A stretch of 64,000 nucleotides of DNA from assembly GCA_012517815.1 (NCBI GenBank), contig JAAYUF010000050.1:5941-69940 (forward strand). Reading direction: 5' to 3'. Position numbers and translations under genes: made by a program. Positions 16,147 through 44,783 of the stretch are shown piece after piece; the stretch's first letter is position 1, and the number at the start of each line of letters is the position of its first letter. Source of the DNA: Clostridiales bacterium. Its GTDB lineage: Bacteria > Bacillota > Clostridia > Christensenellales > Aristaeellaceae. The notes under the pieces were generated by a model. That model made no database searches and was not told the DNA's origin. It saw only the letters and a program-made list of their open reading frames with translations.

Positions 16147-17122
16147 GCGCGGCGTCAAACCCCACGGCCGACGGGCTGAAGTTGAGGCGGCGCGCGTACG
16201 CCAGCGCCTCGGTCGCGCCGTGGATGCGCTCCATGCCGCTGTCCTCCCACTCCACGCACAGCGGGCCGGCATAGCCCATCTGGTTCAGCTCGCGGATGAT
16301 GCCTTCAAAGTCGACGTCGCCGTGCCCGAGGGATACGAAGTTCCAGCCCCGGCGGGTGTCGCCGAACTCGATGTGCGAGCCCAGCACCCCGGAGCGACCG
16401 TCCCGGTTCAGGCGCACGTCCTTCAAGTGCACGTGATACACCTGCCCGGCAAAGTCGCGCAGAAAAACCGTCGGGTCGACGCCCTGCCACAGCAGGTGGC
16501 TGGGATCGAAGTTGAGGCCGAGCGTGGGCCGGTATTCCAGCGTTTCCAGCAGGCGCCTGGTGGAGTAGTAGTCAAACGCGATTTCCGTCGGGTGCACTTC
16601 CAGCGCCAGCTTCACACCGCAGCGGTCATACTCGTCAAAGATCGGCGACCACAGTTCCCGGATGCGCTGAAAGCCCGCCTCCACCATTTCCGGCGTGGTT
16701 TGCGGGAAAGAGTACCAGAAGGCCCAGATCGGGCTGCCCAAAAAGCAGGTGACCACCTTCACGTCCAGCAGTCGGGCGGCTTGGGCGATGGTTTTCATCC
16801 TTGCGGTCGCCCACTGGCGAATCGCCTCCGGGTTGCCCTTCACCTTCGCCGGCACAAAGTGATCCAGGCGCTCGTCGTAACGGTCGCCGACGCACTGCCC
16901 CGCCAGATGGCCGGACAGCGCGCCGATGCGCAGATCGTATTTTTGGAGCAGCGCCTGATACTGCCGGCGGTATTCCGGCTCCCCTGCGATCCGCTCCACG
17001 TCGACGTGCGCCTGCGTCGCGATTTCCAGTCCGTCGTAGCCGATGTCCCGCATGGTGCGGAACAGTTCCTCCGTCGGGAGGTCGCCAAATTGCCCGCTGC
17101 AAATGGTTACGGGTCGCTTCAT
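16133..17122 (-). CDS. sugar phosphate isomerase/epimerase (xylose-isomerase-like TIM barrel)
   Basis: Start at ATG 17122 (MKRPVTICSGQFGD...) behind AAGGGGG. Motifs GYDGLEI, ALEVHP, HVHLKD and WED are characteristic of the AP-endonuclease-2/xylose-isomerase-like TIM family. Confidence 0.85.
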   Translation of the reverse strand: MKRPVTICSGQFGDLPTEELFRTMRDIGYDGLEIATQAHVDVERIAGEPEYRRQYQALLQKYDLRIGALSGHLAGQCVGDRYDERLDHFVPAKVKGNPEAIRQWATARMKTIAQAARLLDVKVVTCFLGSPIWAFWYSFPQTTPEMVEAGFQRIRELWSPIFDEYDRCGVKLALEVHPTEIAFDYYSTRRLLETLEYRPTLGLNFDPSHLLWQGVDPTVFLRDFAGQVYHVHLKDVRLNRDGRSGVLGSHIEFGDTRRGWNFVSLGHGDVDFEGIIRELNQMGYAGPLCVEWEDSGMERIHGATEALAYARRLNFSPSAVGFDAALKMD

Positions 17123-18179: not shown

Positions 18180-18191
18180 GTCTCCCCCTCC

Positions 18192-26530: not shown

Positions 26531-26964
26531 AGCCGAATCCGTCCTTGGGCGGCTGGCGGTCGCCCGTAGCAGGGCCGCGCCGTTTTCGCCCCTGCATACC
26601 CCATTGCCATTTTGCACCCAATCGGTTATCCTTGGGGCGTACCCGTTTGGGAATGTCCCATTTTGCTTTGCCGTCGCCTGCCGCGTCGAACCGGGCCCTG
26701 GGGATGCCCGTCTGCGAGGAACGCCGGCCCGTTCCCAACGGCAACCAAGGGCGAAAGCGAGAAGCCGCGCCGTTACGGATTTCGGAGGCGCACATCCTCT
26801 CTGAAAGGGGCGTCGCCTGTACCGGCCGAGTAGGCCGCTCCCTACGCTGCGTCGTGTGCGAACCGGCTCGGCGAACCCCGCGCGCGCCCGGCGGCCCGTC
26901 GCTCCGGCAAGCCGTAACGCAAGAAAACCGTTGATCCCCTGTGTCCGGTTGGAGGTGAACAGCG

Positions 26965-27891
26965 ATGACGCCCGTGGACAAGCCCGAATATCAGGCATAC
27001 CGGGAAGCCCTCAGCGGCGATTACTCGGTGCGGCACAAATGCACGCACACCAGCGAAAAATCGCGCTTCCATATCCATAACGAGTTTGAGCTGCTGCTCT
27101 GCCTGAGCCCGGATATCCGGCTGGACACGGGCGACCAGTCCGTTCTCCTGCCGCGCTACTCGCTTTTGCTGTTCAACAACATGGATTTGCACCTGATCAG
27201 CCTGACCAAACCGGGCGCGGAAAGCGACCGGTATGTGGTATACTTCAAACCCGAGTATATCAGCGCGCTTTCCACCGACCGAACGGATCTGCTGGAGTGC
27301 TTCCTGCTGCGCCCCTTCCCGGACGCCAACATCCTCCCGCTCACGCCTGAAACGGCCCATGAGCTGGCGGGGATGCTGGACCGGATCATCGCGCTGGATC
27401 AGCAGCCCGAGGAGGCGGCTTTCGGCAACGATTTGCAGGTGAAAATGATGCTGGCGGAATACCTGCTGCGCGTCAACCGCCTGTACCGCGCGCACCACCG
27501 CATCGACGGCTCGGGCACGCAAAGCGGTTACCGCACGGTATATGCGATGCTCAACCACCTGCACCGCAACTTTGCCGACGAGATCAGCCTGGACCAGCTC
27601 GCCCATCAGTTTTTCATCAACAAGTTCTATCTGTGCACGCTGTTTCGGGAGATCACCGGCATGACCCCCCGGCAGTACCTGATCTCCTGCCGTCTGCTGA
27701 AAGCGCGGGAGCTGCTGCTCAACGGCATGCCCGTGGAAGAAGTCTGCGGCCGGGTGGGGTACAACAACCTCTCGCATTTCAGCCGCGCCTTCAAGGAAAA
27801 AGTGGGCGTCAGTCCCAAGAAGTACCAGCTCCGGATGCAGGATGCCCAGCCCGCGGCTCATCCCGACGTGACTGGCCCGAGCACCCCTTAG
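26965..27891 (+). CDS. AraC family transcriptional regulator (N-terminal cupin-like sensor plus C-terminal dual HTH)
   Basis: 308 aa. C-terminal LDQLAHQFFINKFYLCTLFREITGMTPRQYL...VGYNNLSHFSRAFKEKVGVSPKKY. GGAGGTG RBS. Confidence 0.9.
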   Translation: MTPVDKPEYQAYREALSGDYSVRHKCTHTSEKSRFHIHNEFELLLCLSPDIRLDTGDQSVLLPRYSLLLFNNMDLHLISLTKPGAESDRYVVYFKPEYISALSTDRTDLLECFLLRPFPDANILPLTPETAHELAGMLDRIIALDQQPEEAAFGNDLQVKMMLAEYLLRVNRLYRAHHRIDGSGTQSGYRTVYAMLNHLHRNFADEISLDQLAHQFFINKFYLCTLFREITGMTPRQYLISCRLLKARELLLNGMPVEEVCGRVGYNNLSHFSRAFKEKVGVSPKKYQLRMQDAQPAAHPDVTGPSTP

Positions 27892-28199: not shown

Positions 28200-29294
28200 C
28201 TACGCCTTCGCCTCGGGGCCGAAGCATTGCAGCAAGTGCAGCGGTTTTCCGGGTGCGGCCGTCAGGCGCAGGTTTTTCACCCCGGCTGGAATCCAGTACT
28301 GCTCCGCCTGCCGGATGGGCTGCGAGTCCCCTTCGCACGTCATCGCGCCTTCCCCCATCAGGATGTACAGCCCACAGAAAACGCCGGGGCAGCGCAGGTC
28401 AAACCGCGTTTGCACATCCAGCCTGGATAACTGGAACATCGGCGTGTCGCCGTAGGTCACCAGCGCCGTGAGGGTGCCGCCCGGCTGCGTTTCCAGCGTG
28501 CGGCTGGGCAGGAACCACCGCTTGCGCACGGCCTCGCGGGTCATCGAGTCGTAATGGAAGCAATCGAACATCCGCTCGAAGCCCAGTCCCTGATGGCACA
28601 TGGCATCCGCCACCGCGAAACCCGACGGGGTCGTGCGCTCCACCCGGATGGTGTAATCGGTGGGCTCCTGAATCTCCGCCAGAAAGCACCCCGCGCCGAT
28701 GGCGTGCGGAATGCCGCCCTCTATCAGCAGGGTGTCGCCGGGCTCCACGTCAAACCGGTAGAGGCAGGAAAGCATCCCCGGGATATCCTGACGGTCAAAC
28801 AGCGCCTTCCACCCCTCGCGGGTTGTGCCCTGCCGAAAGCCGAGATAAACGCAGGGCTTCTCCCCGCCGACTTCCCGCCCGCCCAGAATGTGCCAGCACT
28901 CGGTTTTCCCGTACGCGCTTTGAAACAGCTCCATCGCCTTTTGCCGGTCGGGGTGCACCTGCACGGTCAGCCGCTCGGCGGAGTCGATCAGCTTGAGCAG
29001 CACCCCCGGCTGCGGGCCGTTCGCGGCAACATGCCTCGCGCCCAGCGCGGCTTCGGGGTTTTGCTCCATCCAGCTTTTCAGGGTGATCCCCGTGCCGTAC
29101 AGGTGGCTTAAGCCTTCTTCGGGAAAGGCTTCCCAGCCGGCGTTGCGCGCGCTGACCACCGAAAGGATCCATTCCTCGGGGAAATGCCCGTCCTCCCCCG
29201 TTTCGCCATGCAGGGCGCTGAGCATGCTCCCGCCCAGATAGGTGCGCCAGGCGCGGGGGTTGTCCAGCCGCGCCGGCCGATCATATTCTGCCAT
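28200..29294 (-). CDS. type I phosphomannose-isomerase-like cupin (PMI paralog 1)
   Basis: Start at ATG 29294 (MAEYDRP...) after GAGG. Motifs EEWILSVV, LTVQVHPD, YGKTECWHIL, GIPHAIGAGCFLAEIQEPTDYT correspond to the class I PMI zinc site and fold. Confidence 0.8.
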   Translation of the reverse strand: MAEYDRPARLDNPRAWRTYLGGSMLSALHGETGEDGHFPEEWILSVVSARNAGWEAFPEEGLSHLYGTGITLKSWMEQNPEAALGARHVAANGPQPGVLLKLIDSAERLTVQVHPDRQKAMELFQSAYGKTECWHILGGREVGGEKPCVYLGFRQGTTREGWKALFDRQDIPGMLSCLYRFDVEPGDTLLIEGGIPHAIGAGCFLAEIQEPTDYTIRVERTTPSGFAVADAMCHQGLGFERMFDCFHYDSMTREAVRKRWFLPSRTLETQPGGTLTALVTYGDTPMFQLSRLDVQTRFDLRCPGVFCGLYILMGEGAMTCEGDSQPIRQAEQYWIPAGVKNLRLTAAPGKPLHLLQCFGPEAKA

Positions 29295-29302
29295 CGCGCG
29301 CC

Positions 29303-30067
29303 TCAAAAGCTGCGCGTGGTGCCGGTGGGCTTATGCACCTCGTCCAGGTAGGCGTTGCCTCGCTCGGGATCGGGGATGAAATCGATCCAGATATAATGGG
29401 AAACCTCGTCCCCGGTAACGCTCACGCCGTGGTTGGAGCCCAGCGGGATATGCAAAAGCGTATCCGGCCCCATGGGGTAGCGCAGATCGTCGATCAGCAG
29501 CGTCATGTGGTTCTCCGGGAAGGAGAAGAAGAACTGATCCAGCAGGGGATGCTCGTGCTGGCCGATCAGATCGTCGGCGTAGGTTTCCACGCTGCCCATA
29601 GCGAAGCGGGGCAGGGTGCGGTGTGGCAGAATCGCGCGGCTGATGGTCTTTTCGCTCTTGAACGGATCGCGGTACTGCATCGCGTCCAGATAGCGCTGCG
29701 TGTAGGGGAAATCGGCGGTTTTGGCAGCCAGCTCGGCGCGGTCGGCATCGATCAGTTCCCAGCGAATCTCCAGCACGTGTGCGGCGCGGGTGGCTTTCAC
29801 CCCGGTGTTCTGCTCCGGCAGCGGCACGAAAACCGCCTTCTCGGCGTAGGCCCATTCCCGCCCGGCCGCGGCGAACACCGCCTCGCCCGCGCAGAGGAAC
29901 AGGATGCGGATAAACCGCGAATCGGCCGGCAGCGAGAGCGTGCCGCCCTCCGGGATCACGTGAAGGAATACCGTGGCCCCGGGGATCGCCCCGGGCAGCA
30001 GCGCTTCGCCGGAGCGGGACGCGCCTTTCAGGTCCAGTTTCACTTCCTGAATATCCTGTGCTTTCAT
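29303..30067 (-). CDS. bicupin protein of unknown function
   Basis: 254 aa. The C-terminal cupin has metal-type motifs GQHEHPLLDQFFF and HIPLGSNHGV. The N-terminal half is a degenerate cupin. No closer family recognised. Confidence 0.6.
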   Translation of the reverse strand: MKAQDIQEVKLDLKGASRSGEALLPGAIPGATVFLHVIPEGGTLSLPADSRFIRILFLCAGEAVFAAAGREWAYAEKAVFVPLPEQNTGVKATRAAHVLEIRWELIDADRAELAAKTADFPYTQRYLDAMQYRDPFKSEKTISRAILPHRTLPRFAMGSVETYADDLIGQHEHPLLDQFFFSFPENHMTLLIDDLRYPMGPDTLLHIPLGSNHGVSVTGDEVSHYIWIDFIPDPERGNAYLDEVHKPTGTTRSF

Positions 30068-30121
30068 GTATCCGTCATCCTTTCCGGCGGCGCCTGACCG
30101 GCCCCGCTGGTTTTCTTCCTG

Positions 30122-32329
30122 TTACGCGACGTCGTCGCCGTTGACGGCCAGCACCCGATCCACCACCAGCTGGCGGAACTCGGGGCTCAGCATGGCGAAA
30201 TAGGCCGTAAAGCCGGTCACGCGCACCACCAGATCGGGGTACTTGCTGGGATCTTTGTGCGCTTGCAGAATCTTGTGCTTGTCGATGATGTTGATGTTGA
30301 GCAGCGTGTTGCCGGTCTCCAGAATCGTGCGGATCATGCTGACCATCTTCTCCACGCCTTCCTCGTTGCCGGCGATGCCCGGGTCGAGTTCCAGCTGCAC
30401 CGGGGCGCAGTTGCCGTAGAAGGGCTGCACGCTCGCGATGGAATTGCACATGGCGGTCACCGCGCCATCCTTGCGGAAGCCGGAGGTCGGGTTTGCGCCA
30501 TGGTTGATGGCTTCGCCGTTGCGTCGGCCGTTGGGCGTGGCGCGCACGCGGCTGCCGAACTCCAGCGTGTTGGCCCAGCTGAACCAGCCGGGGATAAAGT
30601 TGAGACCGGGGTAGCGGAGGCACTCCTCCCGCACGAGGTTGGTAAACAGGTTGTTGACCCGCACGGCCCACCGGTCGCCCAGCGAGTCGCCGCCGCCGAA
30701 CCGCTCGCTGTGCAGCATCATCTGGCGCAGGTACTCGCCGTCTATGTCGTTCCAGTTCAGTTCCAACTGCCGCGTGAGCGCCTTCCAGGTCAGCTTGTGC
30801 TCCTTTTCAATGCGCTGCTCGCAGGCGGCGAAGCTGTCCGCCACGGTGGCGATGCCCGCGCCGTCCATGCACATGTTAAAGTAGCGCGCGCTCTTGGTCA
30901 CGTCCAGCCCGGTTTCCACCGGCCCCTGGCTCAGGAGGTTGCAGATGAGCTCCGGCTCATTCTGGTCCTGCCAGTCCAGGTGAAAGCGGATACCCGCGGC
31001 CGTGGTGTGCACCGCGCGCGTCAGGTGTTTTTCAAAGCGTTGCCACAGCTTGTCGGTGGAAGGCTCCTCCTCCTGTTCCGTCATCTCGCGGAAGGCGACC
31101 TCAAACACCTTGGCGGTGTTGATTTTCACCAGATCGTTCAGGGTATACTCCATGCCGGGGATGCTCATCCAGCTGCAACCGGCCGCCAGCCGCTTGCGCG
31201 CGAGGGTCTGATCGTACCCGCAGCGCATGAAGCCGTTGACCAGGCTGTTGTCGCCAGAAAAGCGCGGCCAGCCGTTCTTGTTTGTAAACAGGAAGCGCAC
31301 CGCCGTGCGGAAGAAATCCTCGTTCATGTTGTCGTGCACGCGCACGGTCAGGTTGCAGGCAATGTTGATCCAGTCCGCCGCTTCCAGGATCAGGTAGCTG
31401 ATGGGGCTGGCCATATCGCGGCCGTCTTCGTCGGGGCCGGCCAGCTGGTAATAGCGCGTGTCGTTTAGGAACAGGCAGGCGATATAGAACTTGGCGGTTT
31501 CGTCGTCGATCAGCCCGGCCGCGATATCCCGCTCGTAGAACGGGCGCAGCAGCTCGTCCAGCTGCCCGCCGGACGGGCCGCGGTTATACAGGCGGCTGAA
31601 AAAACTGAACCAGCACATCCACTGGATGCATTCCCGGAGCGTCCCCGGCCGCTCGGTGGCGATTTTCAGGTTGACGCGGGACATCTCCTTGAGATTCTCC
31701 CGCAGGCAGGGATTGCGTTCCCGCTCCGCATACCCGGCGATTTCTTCGCTCACGCGCTTGAGGAAGGCGATGATCGCCTCCACCACCTGAATTTCGCTGC
31801 GGTAAAACAGCCGGTTTTCGGGCGTGGTATTCACCTGCTGAAACTTGCGCAGCTTTTCCAGAATACCGCCCCAGCCCATGTCAAAGCCCATGCGCAGGTC
31901 GGGGGTGAAGTGGCCGTCGCTGCCGATGCCGCAGATGATGTTGTACTCGTCAAACGCCGCCTTGAGCTCCGTATAGGGATGGTCGGGGTTCCAAAGGCTG
32001 CTCTTGCGGCGGGTCATGAAGAAGAACCCGCGCCCTACAAAGGCGTCCAGCGGATCGCAGTACAGCGGATGCTCCCCAAGAAGCTTGGCGTAATTGTGCG
32101 CCCAGCCTTCATAGCCGTAGTAGCTGCCGTCCGCATGGTTGGGGTCGGGCTCAAACACAAAGGCGTCCGGCGCGACCACGCGGCCGTAATCGTCCTCGTC
32201 CAGCCCGCCCTCGCGCTCGATCTTCTCCTTGGTTTGAGCCAGCTTGCGCTGTTTCAGGAGGCGAATGCGTTTATCGTACGTAAATTCCTCTTCCGCGGGA
32301 AACTCGTTGATCATGACGATGTGATCCAT
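30122..32329 (-). CDS. glycyl radical enzyme, atypical short form (735 aa), substrate unknown
   Basis: Glycyl loop DLVVRVTGFTAYF (Gly706). Finger RATPNGRRNGEAINHGANP. Cys loop LAAGCSWMSIPG (Cys385). Upstream helix block TLRECIQWMCWF. AGGAGG RBS. Confidence 0.85.
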   Translation of the reverse strand: MDHIVMINEFPAEEEFTYDKRIRLLKQRKLAQTKEKIEREGGLDEDDYGRVVAPDAFVFEPDPNHADGSYYGYEGWAHNYAKLLGEHPLYCDPLDAFVGRGFFFMTRRKSSLWNPDHPYTELKAAFDEYNIICGIGSDGHFTPDLRMGFDMGWGGILEKLRKFQQVNTTPENRLFYRSEIQVVEAIIAFLKRVSEEIAGYAERERNPCLRENLKEMSRVNLKIATERPGTLRECIQWMCWFSFFSRLYNRGPSGGQLDELLRPFYERDIAAGLIDDETAKFYIACLFLNDTRYYQLAGPDEDGRDMASPISYLILEAADWINIACNLTVRVHDNMNEDFFRTAVRFLFTNKNGWPRFSGDNSLVNGFMRCGYDQTLARKRLAAGCSWMSIPGMEYTLNDLVKINTAKVFEVAFREMTEQEEEPSTDKLWQRFEKHLTRAVHTTAAGIRFHLDWQDQNEPELICNLLSQGPVETGLDVTKSARYFNMCMDGAGIATVADSFAACEQRIEKEHKLTWKALTRQLELNWNDIDGEYLRQMMLHSERFGGGDSLGDRWAVRVNNLFTNLVREECLRYPGLNFIPGWFSWANTLEFGSRVRATPNGRRNGEAINHGANPTSGFRKDGAVTAMCNSIASVQPFYGNCAPVQLELDPGIAGNEEGVEKMVSMIRTILETGNTLLNINIIDKHKILQAHKDPSKYPDLVVRVTGFTAYFAMLSPEFRQLVVDRVLAVNGDDVA

Positions 32330-32433
32330 GGCGTTACCTCCTGTCGATCTGTGCCGGATTGTCCGCCGGGCCGACGCACCCGTCGCCGCGCGCCGGCAAG
32401 CGTCTGTCCCGCCGGTACGGGCCGTTTTTCGCG

Positions 32434-33336
32434 TCAGGCGTCCGCGCGCGCCTGGATGCCGGCTTCCCTCGCCAGCGCCAGCAGTTCCTGCATGCGGGCT
32501 TTGGGCAGCGGCTTAACGCCCGCAAAGGCGTTGGGCAGGGAAAGGCTTTCGTATTTAGGCTGCCCCAGCGGGTTAAAATTGAGCAGTTCATAGTACGTCA
32601 GGTTGCGGCAGGGTTTCAGGAAAGCCGCGATGGCCGCGATGTTCTCGTCGCTGTCCGTCGCGCCGGGCACCACCGGCGTGCGCACGATGTAGGGCACGTT
32701 CAGGCTGTCCAACCGGCGCAGGTTGTCCAGCACGGTTTCGTTGCCCGTGCCCGTCCATTTCCGGTGCGCCTCGCTGTCCATGAGCTTCAGGTCGCACATG
32801 ATCAGATCTGCCTTGGAAAGCAGCGGGGCGATGTCGTCAAAGGGTTTGTTCAGGTTGGTTTCCAGCCCGACGCGGATGCCCTGCGCGTGGCACGCGTCCG
32901 TGATCGCCATGGCAAACGCCTGCTGGCAAAGCACCTCGCCGCCCGACAGGGTCACGCCGCCCCGGCTGTCGTCATAGTAGGGCTTGTCCTGCACAACTTG
33001 CGCCATCACGCTTTCGACGGTCATCCGTTCGCCGGACATCACCATCGCGCCCGCGTAGCACACCTGCGCGCACTTGCCGCACTTGATGCACAGGTTGGGG
33101 AAGAACCGGTGCTCGCCGTCGATCCGCTTGTGCGCCTTGGAAGGGCAGGCGTACACGCACTTGTAGCACCGGATGCAGTTGCGCGCGTAATCATGCAGGT
33201 CGCGCCCGCCGTGGATCGTCTCCGGGTTATGGCACCATGCGCAGCGCATGTCGCATCCCTTGAAAAAGATGGTCGTACGGATGCCCGGGCCGTCGTTGAG
33301 GGCAAAGCGTTCAATTTCCGTGATCATGCCGTCCAT
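32434..33336 (-). CDS. glycyl-radical enzyme activating enzyme (radical SAM)
   Basis: Start placed at ATG 33336 (MDGMITEIERFALNDGPGIRT...). Radical SAM motif GCDMRCAWCHNPE, plus two ferredoxin-type motifs CIRCYKCVYACP and CIKCGKCAQVC. Confidence 0.88.
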   Translation of the reverse strand: MDGMITEIERFALNDGPGIRTTIFFKGCDMRCAWCHNPETIHGGRDLHDYARNCIRCYKCVYACPSKAHKRIDGEHRFFPNLCIKCGKCAQVCYAGAMVMSGERMTVESVMAQVVQDKPYYDDSRGGVTLSGGEVLCQQAFAMAITDACHAQGIRVGLETNLNKPFDDIAPLLSKADLIMCDLKLMDSEAHRKWTGTGNETVLDNLRRLDSLNVPYIVRTPVVPGATDSDENIAAIAAFLKPCRNLTYYELLNFNPLGQPKYESLSLPNAFAGVKPLPKARMQELLALAREAGIQARADA

Positions 33337-33453
33337 CGGTGGGGAACACTCCTTTAAGGCCGTTGCGGCGGGTGATGGGGGGGGGTTATCGTCTCTGTGT
33401 GGCAACAGTATACCGCGGCGGGGCGTTCGTTTTTGTGCTTTTCATCGCCGTTT

Positions 33454-33480
33454 TTTTGCGAAAATTGAGATTTCGGAAAA
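33454..33480. promoter_or_regulatory. pair of AT-rich near-palindromic boxes upstream of the GRE operon (possible AraC-type activator site)
   Basis: TTTTGCGAAAA (33454..33464) and ATTTCGGAAAA (33470..33480), 16 bp centre to centre. They lie 42 to 68 nt upstream of a lone TATACT -10 element (33412..33407, minus strand) that lacks a good -35. Confidence 0.25.
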
Positions 33481-33842
33481 CGACGCCGCCTTTTCCAGAG
33501 CAGCCGCGGCTGTACCCCCGGTACGGCGCGCGCCTGCGGTTCGCCCCGGAAAACCCGCGACGGCGCGCAAGCGTCGGCAGAACCGCGGCACGGTGCAAAG
33601 AGTCAAGCCCTCGCGGCGCACGGCGGCACGCGCAAAACCGAGCGTCGCCGTTGCCCCGCGGCAGATGCCCCTGCGCGCGGTACGGCCCGTGAAAAAACCG
33701 GCCCTCACGGGCTGCGCGCGGCATCGCTTGGCTGCAATGCGCGCCGCAGCCGCGGAGCCGGTTGCATGTCTCTGGGCTTCCCGTGGTTCGATTTGCCGCT
33801 TCGGCCGGTATGTCTCCTCCGGCCCGGGCCCGCCGGAAGGGC

Positions 33843-34733
33843 TCACTCAACCGCGACCCCTTCGGCCCCGACGACGGACTCCGGCCCGCACTGCCGGGCA
33901 TAGATGTACACGCTGGCGATGATGATCGCACTGCCGAGGATTACCTGCCACGCCGGCACCTCGCCAAACAGCAGCCAGCCCAGCACCGCGGCAAACACCG
34001 GCGCCAGCAGTTTCACCGAGGAAACGTAGGACGCTTTTTCAAACTTGAGGCTGTAGGAGATCATGCTGTGCCCAAGCATGGTGCACACCACGGCCAGCCA
34101 GAGGGCGCTGAGCCAGTTTATCGGCGCATGGCCGCCCGGCGGCACGCCCATGATCAGGCACGCGGCCAGCAGCGTGATCGCCGCGAAGGTATACGCCACA
34201 AAGGTGTACGCGGTGGTGGACGCGTCCTTGCGGCTGCGCTTGCCGATCAGGGTATTGGCGGCGATCAGCACCGCCGCCAGCAGCCCCAGGAGGTTCCCCT
34301 TGAGCGCGTCGGGCGAGCCCGTATCCCTGGCGGTGGTCACCAGCAGGCAGCCCACGAAAGCCGCCACGATCGCCAGCCAGCCCTTGAGCGTAACGCGCTC
34401 CCGAAACAGCACGCGCGCGCCGATGGCGACAAAAAACACTTCGCTGCATGCCAGCACCACCGCCGCCGCGATGGAGGTATGCTGCACGCTTTCAAAATAG
34501 CACAGGAAATGCAAACCCAGCACCACGCCGCTGGCCGCGAAGCTCAGAAAGCGGACGGGCGAAAGCCCGAGCAGCTCCTTACGGTGTCGGATGAACACCG
34601 GCAGCAGAAGGAAGCCCGCGGAGAGCAGCAGCCGCGCGAACGCGAGCCACACCGCGGGCGCCGTGGCGAAGCGCACCGCCAGCGACGAGGTAGACAGGCA
34701 CGCGACCGCGAAAACAACCAGCAGCTTCATCAT
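33843..34733 (-). CDS. EamA/DMT-family transporter
   Basis: 296 aa, about 10 TM segments, duplicated EamA-type halves. Confidence 0.8.
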   Translation of the reverse strand: MMKLLVVFAVACLSTSSLAVRFATAPAVWLAFARLLLSAGFLLLPVFIRHRKELLGLSPVRFLSFAASGVVLGLHFLCYFESVQHTSIAAAVVLACSEVFFVAIGARVLFRERVTLKGWLAIVAAFVGCLLVTTARDTGSPDALKGNLLGLLAAVLIAANTLIGKRSRKDASTTAYTFVAYTFAAITLLAACLIMGVPPGGHAPINWLSALWLAVVCTMLGHSMISYSLKFEKASYVSSVKLLAPVFAAVLGWLLFGEVPAWQVILGSAIIIASVYIYARQCGPESVVGAEGVAVE

Positions 34734-34814: not shown

Positions 34815-36209
34815 CTAGCGCTCGAACAGGCGCTCGATATTGCGGTAGCAGATGTCCTGCACCAGTTGCCCCATGCGGGGCATGTCGGGCGCGATTTCGC
34901 CTTCCTCCATCCAGGTGCCGATGATGTCGCACAGAATGCGCCGGAAGTACTCAAACCGCGGGTAAGAGGTGAAGGAACGGCTGTCGGTCAGCATCCCCAC
35001 AAACTGGGAAAGCATCCCCAGGTTCGCCAGCGTGGTCATCTGCTCCGCCATGCCGTCGCGGTGATCGTTGAACCACCAGGCGGAGCCGAACTGCATCTTG
35101 CCGGCCAGCCCGCCCTCGGCAAAGTTGCCGATCATCGTGCCCAGCACGTAGTTATCCTTGGGGTTCAGGCAATAGAGCACGGTCTTGGGCATGCCCTGAT
35201 CGTTGATGCCGTTGAGCAGGCGCCCCAGCGGCTCTGCGATGCTCAGGTCGTTGACGGAATCAAAGCCGGTATCCGGGCCCAGGCTCCGGGTCATCGCGCC
35301 GTTGACGCGGCGCATGGCCCCCAGGTGCAGTTGCATGATCATGCCCTTTTCCAGATAGCGCCCGGCCAGCCACGTGAGCAGGTACGTCTTGTACGCTTCC
35401 TCCTGTCTCCGGTCGAGGGTTTCGCCGCTCAGGGCCGCGCGAAGAATCGCGTCCGCCTCGGCCTCGCCGCACTGCGCGTACGGCACGGCGCTCAGCGCGT
35501 GGTCGGACACGCGGCAGCCCAGCGCATCGAAAACATCCAGCCGGCTCGCAAGCGCCTCGCGGAGGGTATCCAGCCCCGTAACCCGCACCGACGCCGCCTC
35601 GCCCAGCCTGCGCAGGTAGTCGGTAAAACCCGGACTGCGCACTTCCAGCGCCTGATCCGGGCGGAAGGAGGGCAACACGCGCACGGGAAAATCCCCCGCT
35701 TCGCGCAGCTTGCGGTGGTAGCGGAGGTCGTCGGCGGGGTCGTCGGTGGAGCAGATGGTTTTCACATTGGCGTTGAGGATCATCCGGCGCGTGGTCAGCC
35801 CGTCCCCAAGCACGCGGTTCGCCTGCTCCCACACGGCGGGCGCCGTATCCTCGTTGAGGGGTTCGCTGACGCCGAAATACCGCTGCAATTCCAGGTGCGT
35901 CCAGTGGTACAGCGGGTTGCCGATCGCGCGGGAAACGGTCTTTGCGTACGCCAGAAACTTATCGTACGCGGGCGCGTCGCCGGTAATCAACCGCTCCGGC
36001 ACGCCGTTTAAACGCATGGCGCGCCATTTGTAGTGGTCGCCCGAAAGCCATACCTGCGAGAGGTTATCGTAACGCCGGTCCTCGTCGATTTCGCGCACCA
36101 CCACATGGCAGTGGAAATCGTTGATCGGCATCGCGGCGGCATAGTCGTGGTACAGGGTCCTGGCCGCGTCGCTGCGCAGCAAAAAGTTCTGATCCATAAA
36201 CGGTTTCAT
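34815..36209 (-). CDS. uxaC: glucuronate isomerase
   Basis: Start at ATG 36209 behind AAAGGAG. MKPFMDQNFLLRSDAARTLYHDYAAAMPINDFHCHV is collinear with the E. coli UxaC N-terminus. 464 aa. Confidence 0.9.
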   Translation of the reverse strand: MKPFMDQNFLLRSDAARTLYHDYAAAMPINDFHCHVVVREIDEDRRYDNLSQVWLSGDHYKWRAMRLNGVPERLITGDAPAYDKFLAYAKTVSRAIGNPLYHWTHLELQRYFGVSEPLNEDTAPAVWEQANRVLGDGLTTRRMILNANVKTICSTDDPADDLRYHRKLREAGDFPVRVLPSFRPDQALEVRSPGFTDYLRRLGEAASVRVTGLDTLREALASRLDVFDALGCRVSDHALSAVPYAQCGEAEADAILRAALSGETLDRRQEEAYKTYLLTWLAGRYLEKGMIMQLHLGAMRRVNGAMTRSLGPDTGFDSVNDLSIAEPLGRLLNGINDQGMPKTVLYCLNPKDNYVLGTMIGNFAEGGLAGKMQFGSAWWFNDHRDGMAEQMTTLANLGMLSQFVGMLTDSRSFTSYPRFEYFRRILCDIIGTWMEEGEIAPDMPRMGQLVQDICYRNIERLFER

Positions 36210-36570
36210 CACGTTTTCTCCTTTGCCTGTTGCGGTCCGGAAACCACGATGGACTCCCGACCGGCGGCGCGGCATTGGCACGCCGCCGGTGAGATGTGGC
36301 GATACGCGGAGCGTGACTTGCTCCTGCGGTTGAAACCTTCTTGACAGGTACCCTTGATCGTCCTGCCTGATCGCCGGCTGAATCGGTGGACTTCATCAGC
36401 GGACTTAATCGACGCGCCTGATGGGCGGGCTTCATCCGCGGATACCGTCTGCCCGACCGGCCGGGTTATGAACGTCAGTGCCCGCCGGTGGCCCGGCCGT
36501 CGCGGTTCGCGTATCGGTTCGGCGCGCCGGTCCGGATGAAACCGGCAAGCAGTCGGGAACTGCCGCCCGC

Positions 36571-38330: not shown

Positions 38331-39479
38331 TTAAAACTTGTTTTTAAAGCTGGTGATGGTGGTGTCGCTGAAGGCCGCCACATCCTTGGATTTTTCAAAG
38401 AAATGCGGCGCTTTGGCGCGCCACGCACCGGTGTAGTACTCGCTGTCCTTCCCGATGGGAAAGACAACTTCCTGCCCGGTGATGGAGGAGGCGTAAACCC
38501 CGGTGATCAGCTCAATGCAGTTGCGACCGTCCTGCGCGGTTGCCAGCAACGCCTCTTTGCCCTGTACCGCCCGCAGGAAGTTTTGCACCTGACCGTCGTG
38601 GTTTTCCAGCGCCAGCTTGGGCCGACTCTCAAAATCCGCCGTCGCTTCGGCAACCGTCGCTTCGTCCGGCTCGGGGAAGCCGTTGTCGCGCGGCTTGGAG
38701 GCAAACGCCTGAAACGGGATGCGCAGCCCCGCGCGTTCCATCTGGAAGATCAGCGTCTGCGCTTCGCCGTGGGAGATCAGGCTGCTGGTCAGTTCCGCCA
38801 CGCTGCCGTCCGGGTAACGCAGCACGGAAGAAGAAAAGTCCTCCTCCTCCGAATTGTGGTGGTTCAGGTTGGTCATCATGGCGCGGATGGAGGCGGGCAT
38901 GCCTTTGGCCCACAGTAGAAGATCGATGTGATGGATGGAGTGGTTTTGCGTGCAGCCGCCGCCCTCGACCTCCCAGCGGCCGCGCCAGCCCAGGTCGTAA
39001 TAGCTTTCGCCGCGGTACCACACGGAGTGCACGCGCGCGTAGAGGTTCTTGCCGTACGCGCCGCCGCGCACCATATCCAGCACATTGCGAATGCCTGTGA
39101 TAAAGCGGGACTGCACCACCACGGAAAGGAGCTTGCCATGCCTTTCCGCCGCGGCGATGATCTCGTCGCACTCCGCCAGCGAAGGCGCCATCGGCTTTTC
39201 CAGCAGTACGTGGCAGCCGTGTTCCAGCGCGGCGACGGCCGCGTCCCGGTGCAGGCCCGGCGGGGTGCAAACGCTCACCACGTCCGCATCGGCTAGCCCG
39301 TCGTGATAATCCTCGATCGCCCTGGCTTCGGTCAGCCCGTAGCGCTCCATCAGATCCTTCGCGCGTTGGAGGTTCTGATCCGCAAGGCATACGATGGTCG
39401 CGTCTTCGCCGGCGTGCAGGTATCCTTCGATGTGCGCCGGCGCGATGCCGCCGCAGCCGATGATCATGACTTTCAACAA
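38331..39479 (-). CDS. Gfo/Idh/MocA family oxidoreductase
   Basis: KVMIIGCGGIAPAHIEGY Rossmann motif, VLLEKPMAPS. Start placed at TTG 39479, 7 nt after GGGAGGG (the track ORF begins 7 codons earlier). Confidence 0.85.
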   Translation of the reverse strand: MLKVMIIGCGGIAPAHIEGYLHAGEDATIVCLADQNLQRAKDLMERYGLTEARAIEDYHDGLADADVVSVCTPPGLHRDAAVAALEHGCHVLLEKPMAPSLAECDEIIAAAERHGKLLSVVVQSRFITGIRNVLDMVRGGAYGKNLYARVHSVWYRGESYYDLGWRGRWEVEGGGCTQNHSIHHIDLLLWAKGMPASIRAMMTNLNHHNSEEEDFSSSVLRYPDGSVAELTSSLISHGEAQTLIFQMERAGLRIPFQAFASKPRDNGFPEPDEATVAEATADFESRPKLALENHDGQVQNFLRAVQGKEALLATAQDGRNCIELITGVYASSITGQEVVFPIGKDSEYYTGAWRAKAPHFFEKSKDVAAFSDTTITSFKNKF

Positions 39480-39775
39480 GACGAATCCCTCCCGGTACAA
39501 GGTTCATCATGGGTTGGCAGCGCGCCGCCCGCCCCGGCACGGCGATGGATTAAAGCCTGTGGGCGCGGGAAACGGCGTGTTGGAATAATGCAATTCCGCC
39601 GCGCCTCCGGCAGGCGGGGAAAACGGCGCGCCTGAACCAGGCGCCCCGCCGCTCCTCCGCCGGCCGCGCGCGGGAAACCCGCCGGCCTCGGCGGGTTCGC
39701 CCGCAGGGTAACCTGTGCGCGCGGCCGTTTGGCGCCGGGCGAACGCGCGGGCGGCCGATAGCCGCCCGCGCGATG

Positions 39776-40837
39776 TTATTGCCGCTTGATCGCGTCGTAC
39801 AGGCCGAGGATGTACTGGCTGCCCAGCGCCCGGTCGTACAGGCCGTAACCGGGCATGGACACCTCGCCCCAGATGGCCCGGCCGTGGTCGGGCCGCACCG
39901 GCCCTTCAAAGCCGATATCCACCAGCGCTTTGACGATGGCGTACATATCCAGCGAGCCGTCCGCGGCGTAATGGGCGGATTCCTCAAACACGCCGGGCGC
40001 GGTGTGCTTGGTGTTGCGCACGTGGGCGAAATGGATGCGGCCCTTCAGGCTGCGGATGATGGCTGGGATGTCGTTTTGGGGGTTGGAGCTCAACGAGCCC
40101 GTGCACAGCGTAACGCCGTTATGCGGGTTGGGCACCGCGTCCATCAGCCTGAGCAACTGCTCCCGGCAGGTAATCACGCGCGGCAGGCCGAACACCGACC
40201 AGCAGGGATCGTCGATATGGATGGCCATGTTCACGTCATACTCGTCGCAAACCGGCATCAGCGCGTTGAGGAAATACACCAGGTTGTCAAACAGCTGCTG
40301 CTCGCTCACATGGCGGTAGAGCTCAAACAGCTCCTTCACCCGCGCCATGCGTTCCGGCTCCCAGCCGGGCAGGACGAAGCCGTTGCTGTCCGAATCCACC
40401 TGCCGGAACATCTCCGCCGGATCGATCCCGTCGATCTTGCGCTGGTCGTAGGCCATGGTGGTGGACCCGTCCGGACGCACCTTGGCCAGCTCCGTGCGCG
40501 TCCAGTCGAACACGGGCATGAAGTTGTAGCATACCAGCCTGATGCCTTCGCTGCCCAGCTTGCGGATCGTCTGCACATAGTTTTGGATGTAGCGATCCCG
40601 ATCGGGCGTCCCAGCCTTGATGGCGTCGTGAACGTTTACGCTCTCGATACCCAGCAGGTCCAGCCCGGCGTCGTTGACCTGCTTTTTCATGGCGCGGATC
40701 GCATCCAGATCCCATTCGTCGCCCGGGGCCGTGTCATACAGCGTGGTGATGATCCCTACCATGCCGGGGATTTGCCGTATCTGCCAGAGCTTGACCGAAT
40801 CATGGGTTTCGCCGAACCAGCGAAAGCTCATTTTCAT
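39776..40837 (-). CDS. uxuA: mannonate dehydratase
   Basis: MKMSFRWFGETHD..., VCYNFMPVFDWTRTEL, MAIHIDDP, RPDHG match UxuA throughout. Start at ATG 40837. Confidence 0.9.
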   Translation of the reverse strand: MKMSFRWFGETHDSVKLWQIRQIPGMVGIITTLYDTAPGDEWDLDAIRAMKKQVNDAGLDLLGIESVNVHDAIKAGTPDRDRYIQNYVQTIRKLGSEGIRLVCYNFMPVFDWTRTELAKVRPDGSTTMAYDQRKIDGIDPAEMFRQVDSDSNGFVLPGWEPERMARVKELFELYRHVSEQQLFDNLVYFLNALMPVCDEYDVNMAIHIDDPCWSVFGLPRVITCREQLLRLMDAVPNPHNGVTLCTGSLSSNPQNDIPAIIRSLKGRIHFAHVRNTKHTAPGVFEESAHYAADGSLDMYAIVKALVDIGFEGPVRPDHGRAIWGEVSMPGYGLYDRALGSQYILGLYDAIKRQ

Positions 40838-40868
40838 ATTGAACACGTCCTTATCGAATTCCTGCCTC

Positions 40869-42152
40869 TCAGGCGTAAAGCAGGTTGGGGAGCCACATCA
40901 CCAGATGGGGCAGGAACACCAGCGCGAGCACCAGCAGGATGACCGCCGCGTAGAAGGGCATGGTTTCCTTGAAATACACTTCCACGGGGCAATCCAGGAT
41001 ATCGCACACGGTGTAAAGCGCGGTGCCCACCGGCGGGGTCATGCAGCCCATGGTGACGATGGTCATCATGCAGATGCCGAAATGCACCGGATCCACGCCC
41101 ATCTTCTGCAGCACCGGCAGGAACAGCGGGGTCAGCAGCATGATGTTGACGTTGCTGTCGATAAACATGCCCAGCACAACCAGCAGGAGGATGATCAGCA
41201 CCATCAGGATGGAGGGGTTGCTGGTGAGCCCGAACAGGAAGCCGGTGAGCATGCCCGGCGCGTCCACAATGGTGAGCGCCTTGCCAAAAATGCCCGACAT
41301 CGCGATGATGAGGATGATGCCGCCGTTATCAATGAACGAATCCTTGAGCGCGGCGAAGAACCCTTTCCAGGTGAGCTCCTTGTAAACAAACACACCGATC
41401 ACGATGGCGTACACCACCGCAAACGCGCCCGCCTCGGTAGGGGTAAACAGGCCAAAGCGGATGCCGATGATCAGGATCAGCGGGAAGATCAGCGCCCAGA
41501 TCGACTTTTTCAGTTCAGTCCAGATTTCCTTCCACGTGGGGCGCTTGGCGTCGGGTTTGGGCAGGTCGAACCCGCGGCGCTTGGAGGTGATGTGCACCGT
41601 AGTCATCAGCACGGCCATCATCATCAGGCCGGGCACGATGCCCGCCACAAACAGCTTGCCGATAGATACGCCGCCGATGAACCCGTAGAGGATCAGGCCC
41701 AGCGAGGGCGGAATGGTGGCGGTGATCAGCGACGTCAGGCAGATCACGCCGCCCGCGTAGCCGCGGGTGTAGCCGCGCTTGATCATCTCAGGCCCCAGAA
41801 TGCGCGCTTCCATGGAGGCATCGGCCACGGCCGAGCCGGATACGCCGCCCATCAGCGTGGACAGCAGCACCGACACCTGCGCGATGCCGCCCACCATGCG
41901 GCGGGTCAGCAGGCGGGAGAAGTTGATCAGGTTTTTCGTGATGCCGGTGCGGTTCATCAGGTTACCGGCAAAAATGAAGAACGGCACCGCCAGAAAGGCG
42001 ATGGACTGCGTCTGGGTGATCACGTACTGCGCCAACACGTCCAGACTGCGACCCGAGGATATGAACCAGGCCAGGCCCGCGCCGCCGATGACAAACGCGA
42101 TGGGCATGTTCGCCAGCAGCAGTACCACAAATACGATAGCCAGTGCGATCAT
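40869..42152 (-). CDS. TRAP transporter large permease (DctM family)
   Basis: 427 aa, about 12 TM. 4-nt overlap with the preceding small permease gene. Confidence 0.88.
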   Translation of the reverse strand: MIALAIVFVVLLLANMPIAFVIGGAGLAWFISSGRSLDVLAQYVITQTQSIAFLAVPFFIFAGNLMNRTGITKNLINFSRLLTRRMVGGIAQVSVLLSTLMGGVSGSAVADASMEARILGPEMIKRGYTRGYAGGVICLTSLITATIPPSLGLILYGFIGGVSIGKLFVAGIVPGLMMMAVLMTTVHITSKRRGFDLPKPDAKRPTWKEIWTELKKSIWALIFPLILIIGIRFGLFTPTEAGAFAVVYAIVIGVFVYKELTWKGFFAALKDSFIDNGGIILIIAMSGIFGKALTIVDAPGMLTGFLFGLTSNPSILMVLIILLLVVLGMFIDSNVNIMLLTPLFLPVLQKMGVDPVHFGICMMTIVTMGCMTPPVGTALYTVCDILDCPVEVYFKETMPFYAAVILLVLALVFLPHLVMWLPNLLYA

Positions 42153-42866: not shown

Positions 42867-43850
42867 TTACTTGATGCCCAGCTGCGCGTACAGCTCGGTG
42901 CGCAGGGCTTCGAAATCCGCGCCGCCGGTGGTGGCGGGATCGGCGTACAGGCTCGCGGTCGCGGCGCGGAACGCGTCACGGTCGGGCTCGGTCACGGTCA
43001 CGCCCATGGTCTTCATCTCGTCCAGGTACTTCACTTCGTACTCAAGCACGAGCGCCTGGTTGTCCTTGTAGTTCTGCACGCAGCTGGTGCTCAGCTGTTC
43101 CTGCTGCTCGGCGGAGAGGGTGTCAAACCACGCGACGCCGCAGACCATGTCGCAGGTCAGCAGGAAGTGGTGGCTCAGCGAGATGTCCTTGCAGACTTCA
43201 TAGAACTTGGCGGAGTAGATCGTGGGGATCTGCCACTCGCCGCCGTCGATGACCTTGGTCTGGATGCCGTTGTAGGCTTCCGACTGAGCCATCGGGGTCG
43301 CGATCGCGCCCATGGCGTTGACGGAGTTGATGGCGATGGGGTTGCCCATGGTGCGGATCTTGAGGCCCGCGAGGTCCTCAGGCTTGGTGATGGGCTTGTT
43401 GGTCACCCAGTTGCGCCAGCCGGTGAGGCCGTTGGCGGTCAGCAGCACGATGCCCTTGCCGCGGAGTTCTTCGACCCAGCTCTTGTACAGGTCGGTCTCC
43501 ATCAGGCCGCTGAGCTGATCGTAGCTGTCCAGCAGGTAAGGCATCATCAGGATGCCGATGCCGGGGCAGTAGGCGGCCAGGCGGGAAGGATCGCTGGAGG
43601 CGATCACGGGCTCGCCCATCATGCCGGCTTCCGTCACGTCGTCGGTGTTGCCCATTTCGGAAGAGACAAGCGCCTTGGCGTTCCAGCCGCCCATTTCGTT
43701 GAGGCGGCGCGCCCACTCCTCGTGACCCATGGACTGGGTGTCTCCGGGGCCGTTGGTGCCGGTGATGATGACTTCGGTGTCGGCCAGCGCGGAAACGAAC
43801 GTCAGGCACAGCGCCAGCGCCAGTACGAGGGACAGGATCTTCTTGGACAT
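42867..43850 (-). CDS. TRAP transporter substrate-binding protein (DctP family)
   Basis: Start at ATG 43850 (MSKKILSLVLALALCLTFVSALA|DT) behind AAAGGAGGAAAAA. DctP-type fold. Confidence 0.85.
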   Translation of the reverse strand: MSKKILSLVLALALCLTFVSALADTEVIITGTNGPGDTQSMGHEEWARRLNEMGGWNAKALVSSEMGNTDDVTEAGMMGEPVIASSDPSRLAAYCPGIGILMMPYLLDSYDQLSGLMETDLYKSWVEELRGKGIVLLTANGLTGWRNWVTNKPITKPEDLAGLKIRTMGNPIAINSVNAMGAIATPMAQSEAYNGIQTKVIDGGEWQIPTIYSAKFYEVCKDISLSHHFLLTCDMVCGVAWFDTLSAEQQEQLSTSCVQNYKDNQALVLEYEVKYLDEMKTMGVTVTEPDRDAFRAATASLYADPATTGGADFEALRTELYAQLGIK

Positions 43851-43975
43851 GGTTTTTCCTCCTTTTTGGTGAGTACATATGATCGCACACAGCGCGATAC
43901 ATCGTAGTTGGGCGGGCACGCCGGCAGTTTGCGCGCCCTTGGGATGGCTATTCACAGATCGTTCACATCAATCGC

Positions 43976-44039: not shown

Positions 44040-44783
44040 TCACTGGATGAACTGGGGGTAGCGCTCCTTAAGAACCTTGATTTCATCGAAGATTCGCCGC
44101 ACATGCCGGCGAAGGAGCGCCTGCACGTCGGCCAGGTTCCGCTCCTTGATCAGGCGAACCATCTGCTCGTGCTGTTCCAGATTCATGCGCTGGATCGCTT
44201 CGTCGCTGCAGGAGGAAAGGTACCGCAAACGCTGGTAGTCAAAGCAGTTGCGCCGGAGCACCTGATAGCACAGGTATTTGTCGGTTTCCACGTAGAACGT
44301 CCTGTGGAACTCGTCGTCAAACGTCAGGAAGGCGGCAAAATCCTTGCTCAGCAGCGCCTGTTTTTGCAGCTCAATCACCTGCTCCAGCACGTCGATCGCG
44401 CCTGGGCGGAGGTTGAGCACAAATTGTTCCAGCACGGCCTGTTCCAGCGATTCGCGCAAAAAATGCTCCTGCTGCGCGCGCTCGGTGCTGATTTTGGCCA
44501 CGGCGGTGCGCCGCTGCGGGGAGATGATGACCATCTTCTCGCGGGAAAGCCGGATGAACGCCTCGCGCACCGGGGTACGGCTTACGCCAAGGGCGTTGGC
44601 CGTTTCCTGCTCGCTCATGGTCACCCCCGGGGTCAGCTGCATCGTGATGATGCGCTCCCGGAGGGTCTTGTAGATTTGGCTGGCCACCGTCTGGCTGTCC
44701 TTGAGCTGGAAATCGCTCATCTGGAGCGGATCGAACCGTTCGCACTCCTGATAGGGGCGGCTTTCCTTGATGAATGTCGACAT
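44040..44783 (-). CDS. GntR family transcriptional regulator (FadR/FCD subfamily)
   Basis: 247 aa. wHTH IYKTLRERIITMQLTPGVTMSEQETANALGVSRTPVREAFIRL plus an all-helical C-terminal domain. Confidence 0.88.
   Translation of the reverse strand: MSTFIKESRPYQECERFDPLQMSDFQLKDSQTVASQIYKTLRERIITMQLTPGVTMSEQETANALGVSRTPVREAFIRLSREKMVIISPQRRTAVAKISTERAQQEHFLRESLEQAVLEQFVLNLRPGAIDVLEQVIELQKQALLSKDFAAFLTFDDEFHRTFYVETDKYLCYQVLRRNCFDYQRLRYLSSCSDEAIQRMNLEQHEQMVRLIKERNLADVQALLRRHVRRIFDEIKVLKERYPQFIQ

Follow-up and report, generated by a model that had tools for sequence, protein, structure and literature searches.

A 64,000-nucleotide stretch of a Clostridiales bacterium genome (GenBank assembly GCA_012517815.1; contig JAAYUF010000050.1, positions 5,941 to 69,940), hereafter referred to as the window, carries four genes centered on a predicted glycyl radical enzyme (GRE). 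Newly assigned GREs have each revealed new anaerobic chemistry, often with relevance to a host, as for trimethylamine, p-cresol, skatole, H2S, hydroxyproline, and anhydro-sugars. The genes lie on the minus strand from 33336 to 28200 in the order activase, GRE, bicupin, and phosphomannose-isomerase (PMI)-like cupin (Table 1). These four tightly packed open reading frames (ORFs) are separated by gaps of 104, 54, and about 8 nt. All ORFs listed in the original prediction, which had been made from the sequence alone, are present as described, and the EamA transporter gene and the convergent AraC-family regulator gene that it placed beside the operon were both found in the Pfam searches.

An AT-rich stretch and a TATACT-like element are found in the gap of approximately 500 bp between the EamA gene and the activase gene, as is a good ribosome-binding site (AAAGGAG). 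Given this gap and these elements, the four core genes probably form a transcription unit of their own, and the promoter of the operon is presumed to lie in this region. No match to the sigma-70 consensus was found there, and no Rfam family or RNA element was identified in this leader; for lack of an Rfam match, a riboswitch or other RNA element was rejected both here and in a 1.66-kb gap between a NagB-like gene and araC that is described below. The AraC-family regulator would control the operon, and at least 11 related loci have a homolog no more than 10 kb from the GRE gene. For the PMI-like gene, the ATG at 29294 is more likely to be the start than the alternative TTG at 29306 (368 aa), because the database copy has 364 aa.

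The activase scored 302 bits against TIGR02494 (PFLE_PFLC; cutoff 174) and has Radical_SAM and Fer4 matches in Pfam. Its translation contains CDMRCAWC (CX3CX2C) together with two ferredoxin-type CX2CX2CX3C motifs (CIRCYKCVYACP and CIKCGKCAQVC), in agreement with the earlier claim that the GRE has its own activase with two auxiliary ferredoxin-type clusters. An activase gene is directly upstream of the GRE gene in the related loci whose flank extends far enough. At 8913-10004 of one Lachnospiraceae locus (L032), a GDSL/GxDLY esterase gene sits between the two, and genes for a GH78 rhamnosidase, a GH94 enzyme, and a second esterase are found upstream. The esterases and glycoside hydrolases of this locus hint at an esterified or glycosylated precursor.

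A glycyl radical enzyme with a C-x-W motif

The 735-aa GRE matches the Pfam families PFL-like (PF02901; 3.9e-85) and Gly_radical (PF01228; 3.2e-15), and the three GRE motifs that had been read from the sequence (DLVVRVTGFTAYF, RATPNGRRNGEAINHGANP, and LAAGCSWMSIPG) all occur in it. The codons previously assigned to Gly706 (30212..30214) and Cys385 (31175..31177) are correct, that of Trp387 is 31169..31171, and the glycyl loop RVTGF fits the superfamily pattern RVxG[FYW]. In HMMER alignments to PDB chains, the segment aaGCSWmsipG pairs with tdGCVEiapfG of 2f3o and lmGCVEpqksG of CutC, such that Cys385 aligns with the Cys of G-C-V-E and Trp387 aligns with its Glu. By this alignment to solved GREs, Cys385 is predicted to occupy the end of the Cys loop where the thiyl radical residue resides, as had been proposed; C-x-E is absent at that position, and the Glu at Cys+2 is missing, with an invariant Trp in its stead. 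In all characterized eliminases and isomerases, this Glu serves to deprotonate a hydroxyl of the substrate. Among 23 family members (62-100% identity), C385, W387, and G706 are invariant, whereas the Cys+1 position is S, H, or N. Of the G-C-S-W motif proposed originally, the Trp in place of the Cys+2 Glu is therefore retained but the Ser at +1 is not fixed, and because of this variation the motif is better described as C-x-W. The protein is also short, with its Cys at position 385 compared with Cys431-489 in characterized GREs. The deficit is located N-terminal to the Cys, as had been stated, but amounts to about 30-110 aa relative to characterized GREs of 765-850 aa rather than the 70-110 aa given before.

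The retained H140 corresponds by alignment offset to His164 of glycerol dehydratase, and D399 is found at the offset of Asp447 of that enzyme; both residues fit a hydroxylated substrate. Several aromatic residues are also invariant in the GRE (W153, W237, W387, F583, and W585). The combination of kept hydroxyl-binding residues, a lost base, and invariant aromatics would fit a carbohydrate-type pocket.

The motif is not limited to close relatives. In an HMMER scan of 1.84 billion cluster representatives, 23 full-length relatives (26-55% identity) carry C-[NHFQPG]-W, and typical C-x-E GREs were found only at 31% identity or below. Most of these relatives have 677-775 aa. The one exception (P0250, a cluster representative of 1052 aa) has an N-terminal extension of approximately 300 residues, with the query match beginning at residue 310. 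In a neighbor-joining tree of 82 sequences (the query, the 23 C-x-W library representatives, and 58 others), the 24 C-x-W sequences form one clade, and none of the 58 others falls inside. The equivalent of Trp387 is invariant throughout this clade, which is separated from the C-x-E GREs by W387, E394, Y395, D399, and R246. On the evidence of these sequences, C-x-W is the mark of a large monophyletic clade, far wider than the family of the query.

Similarity, structure, and tree all place the protein outside the characterized clades, as the original prediction had it. The NCBIfam equivalog models for CutC, HypD, HpsG/HpfG, IAD, HPAD, PFL, and E. coli formate C-acetyltransferase gave 61-193 bits against cutoffs of 994-1150, and the PFL2-3 subfamily model gave 227 bits against 678. 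Within this set, the CutC, HypD, HpsG/HpfG, and PFL2-3 models scored 159-227 bits (cutoffs 678-1100), and the decarboxylase models scored 111 (IAD; cutoff 1100) and 96 bits (HPAD; cutoff 1150), all below cutoff. The assignment to PFL/TdcE failed, with a G-C-S-W loop that lacks the Cys-Cys pair and a TIGR01255 score of 61 bits against 994. No gene for a decarboxylase small subunit was found between or beside the core genes. The X-succinate synthases BSS and MASS match weakly (E=1e-16 to 3e-17), and no ORF for their accessory subunits (beta and gamma) was found among the ORFs of the locus. On three counts (NCBIfam scores under the cutoffs, the Cys-loop motif, and the position in the tree), membership in a known GRE family was ruled out. 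The source records name the protein "pyruvate formate lyase family" or "formate acetyltransferase," and the latter label is probably wrong.

According to a June 2026 review, the six C-O eliminases, CutC, the C-S lyases, and the three isomerases all keep C-x-E, and the C-C pair is confined to PFL and TdcE (PMC13450708). No cupin-linked or C-x-W GRE is included in this review (PMC13450708), and none was returned by literature searches on cupins, PMI, sugar acids, and inositol or found among the 40 top-ranked of 198 GRE papers of 2025-26. These searches agree with the earlier remark that no characterized GRE pathway was known to have PMI-type partners. Because the mechanism-defining residue of the known eliminases and isomerases is absent, their chemistry is not simply transferable to the C-x-W enzymes.

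The AlphaFold2 (AF2) model of the GRE (pLDDT 80; pTM 0.84) was compared by Foldseek with solved GREs (glycerol/propanediol dehydratases, CutC, PflD/YbiW, HypD, IslA/IseG, HpsG, HplG, HPAD, BSS, and MASS), and TM scores of 0.69-0.77 with identities of 16-21% were obtained, such that no class stands out and TM was about equal across the solved GREs. The best PDB match by sequence is PFL2 of Archaeoglobus fulgidus (2f3o; E=4e-44), an orphan GRE that, like the query, has no assigned function. However, this archaeal protein of 776 aa carries G-C-V-E and is only about 21% identical in the structural alignment. The B12-independent glycerol/1,2-propanediol dehydratases (1r8w, 5i2g, and 9rco) have the same 10-stranded barrel and gave the top Foldseek TM scores (0.75-0.77). 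They are alike in the positions of the Gly and Cys loops, the His164 equivalent, and an activase with ferredoxin-like inserts. Yet their general base is Glu435 where the query has the invariant Trp, the query is about 50-110 residues shorter N-terminal to the Cys with 17-20% identity in structural alignments, and its operon has two cupins and no microcompartment genes. The YbiW/PflD isomerases (8id7, 8id0, and 8yjo) are carbohydrate-acting GREs of similar size (PflD, 765 aa) that open the ring of 1,5-anhydrohexitol-6-phosphate. Their C-O cleavage to a keto sugar for downstream enzymes is the best functional analogy. In contrast to the query, these isomerases have an intact C-x-E whose Glu forms a hydrogen bond with the C2-OH, and they match the query at only E=4e-40 to 2e-36; their gene neighbors include neither cupins nor a tripartite ATP-independent periplasmic (TRAP) transporter.

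Cupin partners and conservation of the gene order

The 254-aa protein has no Pfam match (including KduI/IolB, PF04962) and no PDB match by sequence. Its AF2 model (pLDDT 94) resembles many bicupins in Foldseek (TM 0.6-0.73; probability 1.0), among them YxaG, ureidoglycine aminohydrolase, BacB, IolB-like 2qjv (15% identity), and oxalate decarboxylase. The model clearly predicts a bicupin with two tandem cupin barrels. In the alignment, an invariant H171-x-H173...Q178...H213 motif is present in the C-terminal barrel only, so that the metal-site bicupin claimed originally is upheld by fold and motif for the C-terminal cupin. A bicupin with 47% identity occurs without a GRE in a locus with fucose-isomerase, kinase, and LacI genes.

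The 368-aa form of the other cupin matches the PMI-like protein of Bacillus subtilis (YvyI, 1qwr; 4e-11) and has the same Gln-His-Glu-His ligands. In 121 aligned sequences, Q116, H118, E136, and H201 are at least 97% conserved. This distant match and the kept metal site agree with the type-I PMI-like cupin named in the original prediction. The protein has no Pfam match at the default threshold, and it scored 48.9 bits against TIGR00218 (manA; cutoff 116.2). With a score well under this equivalog cutoff, the "mannose-6-phosphate isomerase" label of the source records is not established and is probably wrong. At 9151-11095 of a Lachnoclostridium phytofermentans ISDg locus (L034), a 56%-identical PMI-like cupin occurs without a GRE, directly downstream of a GntR/FCD regulator gene. 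This GRE-less copy indicates that the PMI-like subfamily has its own role, possibly with organic-acid sugars. The published expression data of C. phytofermentans were set aside as having no bearing on the GRE operon, since its PMI-like homolog is GRE-less. The PMI and KduI/IolB families isomerize sugars or uronates beside a carbonyl, and neither has been tied to a radical enzyme; the bicupin superposes on the IolB-like 2qjv of the KduI/IolB-type uronate isomerases, without the PF04962 match.

The order activase-GRE-bicupin-PMI was found in more than 25 loci of several bacterial lineages, which answers positively the question of whether the GRE-bicupin-PMI triad is conserved. The carriers include Candidatus Limiplasma, Chakrabartyella piscis, Enterocloster citroniae, Clostridium sp. 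MSTE9, Lachnospiraceae and Oscillospiraceae metagenome-assembled genomes (MAGs), termite-gut Spirochaetales, and loci whose neighbor genes resemble those of Lentisphaerae or Planctomycetes. Where the downstream flank is long enough, a bicupin gene follows the GRE gene in nearly every related locus, and GRE identity among the cupin-linked loci falls to 58%. Beyond this range, sister C-x-W GREs (36-54% identity) were examined in 80 metagenomic loci, none of which has the bicupin and which together gave a single weak PMI-like match. On the basis of these 80 loci, a cupin link across the wider C-x-W clade was rejected, and the cupins appear to be confined to the GRE subfamily at roughly 58% identity or above. 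The recurring neighbors of the sister GREs (L036-L115) are paired Gfo/Idh/MocA genes and genes for sugar ABC permeases and binding proteins. A 364-aa protein of unassigned family also recurs in these loci, which come from sediment, freshwater, and hot-spring metagenomes and have an activase gene nearby in about half of the cases.

The clade is represented in Enterocloster of the human gut, in other Lachnospiraceae and in Oscillospiraceae, in MAGs from rumen and goat, and in spirochaetes of the termite gut. Enterocloster citroniae, Chakrabartyella piscis, and Clostridium sp. MSTE9 are hosts that have been cultured.

Transporters and uronate genes around the operon

Upstream of the operon, the EamA gene is followed by a string of uronate genes, a TRAP transporter, and a GntR/FCD regulator gene heading this string (Table 1). 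UxaC scored 574 bits against NF002794 (cutoff 387), and the 544-aa reductase is under the cutoffs for both fructuronate and tagaturonate reductase.

Table 1. Features of the operon and its surroundings in the window.
Feature	Coordinates	Strand	Evidence
GRE-activating radical SAM enzyme, ~300 aa from ATG at 33336	32434..33336	-	TIGR02494, Pfam, translated motifs
C-x-W GRE, 735 aa	30122..32329	-	Pfam, alignment, AF2
Bicupin, 254 aa	29303..30067	-	AF2 model and Foldseek
Type-I PMI-like cupin, 364 aa from ATG 29294	28200..29294	-	1qwr match
Intergenic region 5' of activase, ~500 bp, presumed operon promoter	33337..33842	-	Sequence reading; promoter function inferred
AraC-family regulator, convergent with operon	26965..27891	+	HTH_18, HTH_AraC, AraC_binding
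EamA-family transporter	33843..34733	-	EamA Pfam 1.9e-36
Glucuronate isomerase UxaC	34815..36281	-	PF02614 4e-194; NF002794
Mannitol-dehydrogenase-family polyol or uronate reductase, divergent, 544 aa	36571..38205	-	Mannitol_dh, Mannitol_dh_C
Gfo/Idh/MocA oxidoreductase, sugar 3-dehydrogenase-like	38331..39500	-	Pfam, PDB matches
Mannonate dehydratase UxuA	39776..40846	-	PF03786 4.9e-143
TRAP transporter, DctM	40869..42152	-	Pfam DctM
TRAP transporter, DctQ	42149..about 42772	-	Pfam DctQ
TRAP transporter, DctP	42867..43955	-	Pfam DctP
GntR/FCD regulator	44040..44783	-	GntR, FCD

The EamA gene had been noted as lying upstream of the operon. Homologs were found near the operon in only two loci (L002 and L020), and the gene is separated from the activase gene by approximately 500 bp; it is a lineage-specific neighbor, and the TRAP transporter is conserved instead. 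At least 12 related loci have DctPQM genes next to the GRE operon or close to it. The DctP of the window shares 61-71% identity with the DctPs near or beside the GRE operon in six loci (L003, L007, L009, L010, L012, and L021), of which it is an ortholog, and a second orthologous DctP group was found in three others (L005, L017, and L025, the last from E. citroniae, with DctP at 15317..16327). Among solved TRAP binding proteins, 4o8m, 4ovt, 4p1e, and 2hpg come closest, ahead of sialic-acid binders. Through its conserved binding proteins, the TRAP system gives direct experimental access to the substrate.

In E. citroniae, the locus is minimal, with the TRAP, AraC, and four core genes only and no Gfo/Idh/MocA gene. 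At 44788-49176 of the window, an ABC-2-type cluster (ABC_tran, ABC2 membrane protein, ABC_transp_aux/DUF7088, and DUF4340) precedes GntR/FCD and DctP. The same order is found beside the GRE operon of C. piscis (L029, 15756-20107), and this sharing indicates that synteny reaches well past the four core genes.

The best PDB matches of the Gfo/Idh/MocA protein in the window are 3q2i/3q2k (WlbA-type), the P2B11 glucuronide-3-dehydrogenase 8tdi (2e-24), and DgpA, a resemblance to glucuronide and C-glycoside 3-dehydrogenases. P2B11 is an oxidative glucuronide-cleaving cluster from a Gram-positive gut bacterium, in which two Gfo/Idh/MocA proteins and two TIM-barrel "isomerases" act on uronic-acid substrates via a 3-keto intermediate. 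The family of the query is similar in that pairs or fusions of AP_endonuc_2 and Gfo genes adjoin the activase or GRE genes in many loci (L011, L016, L019, L022, L031-L033, and L117). However, the P2B11 system has no GRE and no cupins, the similarity is moderate, and the Gfo partners found here are not mutually orthologous. A role of Gfo/Idh/MocA as a single orthologous partner was ruled out by this heterogeneity.

Possible role in sugar-acid breakdown

The operon, from a large GRE branch with Trp in place of the Glu and with two sugar-isomerase-like proteins encoded alongside, probably carries out a step in anaerobic sugar-acid breakdown in gut bacteria. Most likely, the GRE would cleave a C-O bond of an acidic sugar, or rearrange such a sugar, by radical chemistry. 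In this scheme, an acidic sugar or sugar-acid derivative would be imported by the conserved TRAP system, and the radical SAM activase would install the radical on Gly706. The GRE would then abstract a hydrogen atom, leading to C-O cleavage, dehydration, or a ring-opening rearrangement beyond the reach of polar enzymes. The role of the absent Glu may be taken by the clade-specific acidic residues E394 and D399, with Trp387 possibly stacking against the sugar. The PMI-like protein (Q/H/E/H) and the bicupin (H/H/Q/H), both presumably metal-dependent, could catalyze aldose-ketose or keto-enol isomerization of the substrate or of a carbonyl product, and the product may feed the adjacent hexuronate/2-keto-3-deoxygluconate route (UxaC, reductase, and UxuA). 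As speculation only, candidate substrates are 4-O-methyl-glucuronate, other ether-linked or deoxy uronates and aldonates, and 3-keto-uronate intermediates.

The sugar or sugar-derived substrate claimed originally gains from the TRAP, UxaC/UxuA, Gfo/Idh/MocA, AP_endonuc_2, and sugar ABC genes nearby but is not proven by them. We consider it reasonably probable that the locus is a functional GRE system outside every characterized GRE class, with a radical role on an acidic sugar as part of its best explanation. A broader proposal is more tentative, namely, that C-x-W GREs are a new carbohydrate-acting class without the Glu base, in which the cupin-linked subfamily carries out a radical step on a TRAP-imported acidic sugar (ether/C-O cleavage, ring opening, or decarboxylation) and two cupin isomerases complete a new anaerobic route widespread in the gut, rumen, and termite gut. 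It is possible, though somewhat less likely than not.

Several points weigh against an acidic-sugar role. The reaction type of the GRE is drawn from gene context only, and ordinary dehydratases handle most sugar acids, which leaves the need for radical chemistry unexplained. In the AF2 model, the Cys loop (residues 386-389) and the finger loop have pLDDT values below 50. ABC or SSF sugar transporters replace TRAP in some loci, and the ligands of 4o8m and 4ovt are only presumed to be sugar acids, with L-galactonate and L-fuconate as the candidates. The Gfo/Idh/MocA protein of the window is 27-33% identical to the copies of two related loci (L003 and L019), and these neighbors are not one orthologous group. 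Considering the minimal locus of E. citroniae, the uronate genes may also be neighbors by chance of lineage.

An alternative is a neutral substrate. A keto- or anhydro-sugar could be supplied by the neighboring Gfo/Idh/MocA and TIM-barrel enzymes, such as a 3-keto-glycoside intermediate or a cyclitol, with the TRAP and uronate genes only loosely linked. The AP_endonuc_2 and Gfo genes or fusions directly beside the GRE in the loci listed above, the resemblance of the window Gfo to DgpA and the glucuronide 3-dehydrogenase, the cleavage of glycosides by Gfo and TIM-barrel pairs via 3-keto intermediates, and the ABC sugar transporters of the sister clades are all consistent with this explanation. 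Yet E. citroniae and several Lachnospiraceae loci have a TRAP transporter without any Gfo or AP_endonuc_2 gene within 10 kb, and orthologous TRAP binding proteins follow the operon across families. We consider a neutral substrate unlikely.

An acidic substrate could instead be decarboxylated. The GRE would then remove CO2 from a uronic acid or another sugar acid by radical chemistry (for example, hexuronate to pentose and CO2), and the cupins would be aldose-ketose isomerases for the neutral products. A TRAP transporter implies a carboxylate substrate, aldoses are the classical substrates of PMI-type cupins, and the regulator of AraC type and the GRE-less bicupin homolog in the fucose-isomerase and kinase locus are in line with this possibility. 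Among characterized GREs, the decarboxylases are also the class whose Cys+2 residue can be other than Glu, and Gln484 of PAD presumably occupies that position. This residue is named as essential in the GRE review (PMC13450708). Against such a reaction, the decarboxylase equivalog models score lowest of the eliminase-like matches (96-111 bits against 1100-1150), a pentose kinase or epimerase is not consistently nearby in the related loci, and the sister C-x-W clades go with neutral-sugar ABC transporters. Moreover, without an aromatic or proton-coupled electron transfer partner, it is unfavorable for a thiyl radical to oxidize an aliphatic carboxylate by one electron. A sugar-acid decarboxylase thus seems rather improbable.

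It is highly improbable that the GRE is a divergent glycerol/propanediol dehydratase, PflD/YbiW anhydro-sugar isomerase, or PFL with a known reaction, since the annotations in the source records, the top Foldseek match to the glycerol dehydratase 1r8w, the kept His164 equivalent (H140), and D399 at the Asp447 offset are outweighed by an invariant Trp in place of the C-x-E or C-C motif, scores far under the cutoff of every equivalog model, 16-21% identity to solved GREs, and a separate monophyletic clade, the motif test alone already contradicting this explanation. A link of the operon to sulfoquinovose or sulfonates was also considered, as Clostridium sp. MSTE9 carries the cluster, and was rejected; sulfite-handling genes are absent nearby, and no paper that connects such a cluster with this chemistry was returned by the literature searches.

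On the other side of the operon, further sugar-related genes are found. A sugar module at 17136-22886 comprises Gfo/Idh/MocA, an ABC permease, an ABC ATPase, a periplasmic sugar-binding protein, and a LacI regulator. The ORF at 23810-24463 on the plus strand has the C-terminal domains of Gfo/Idh/MocA only, with the Rossmann part out of frame, and may represent a frameshift, a pseudogene, or an assembly error; a NagB-like gene (24547-25305) lies just downstream. Between this gene and araC is a very GC-rich region of 1.66 kb (25306-26964) with no Pfam-supported ORF and no Rfam match, and a NagA pseudogene was rejected there for lack of Pfam support. This region contains a 37-nt tandem repeat at 25795-25917, present as three overlapping 49-nt copies with 96-100% identity.

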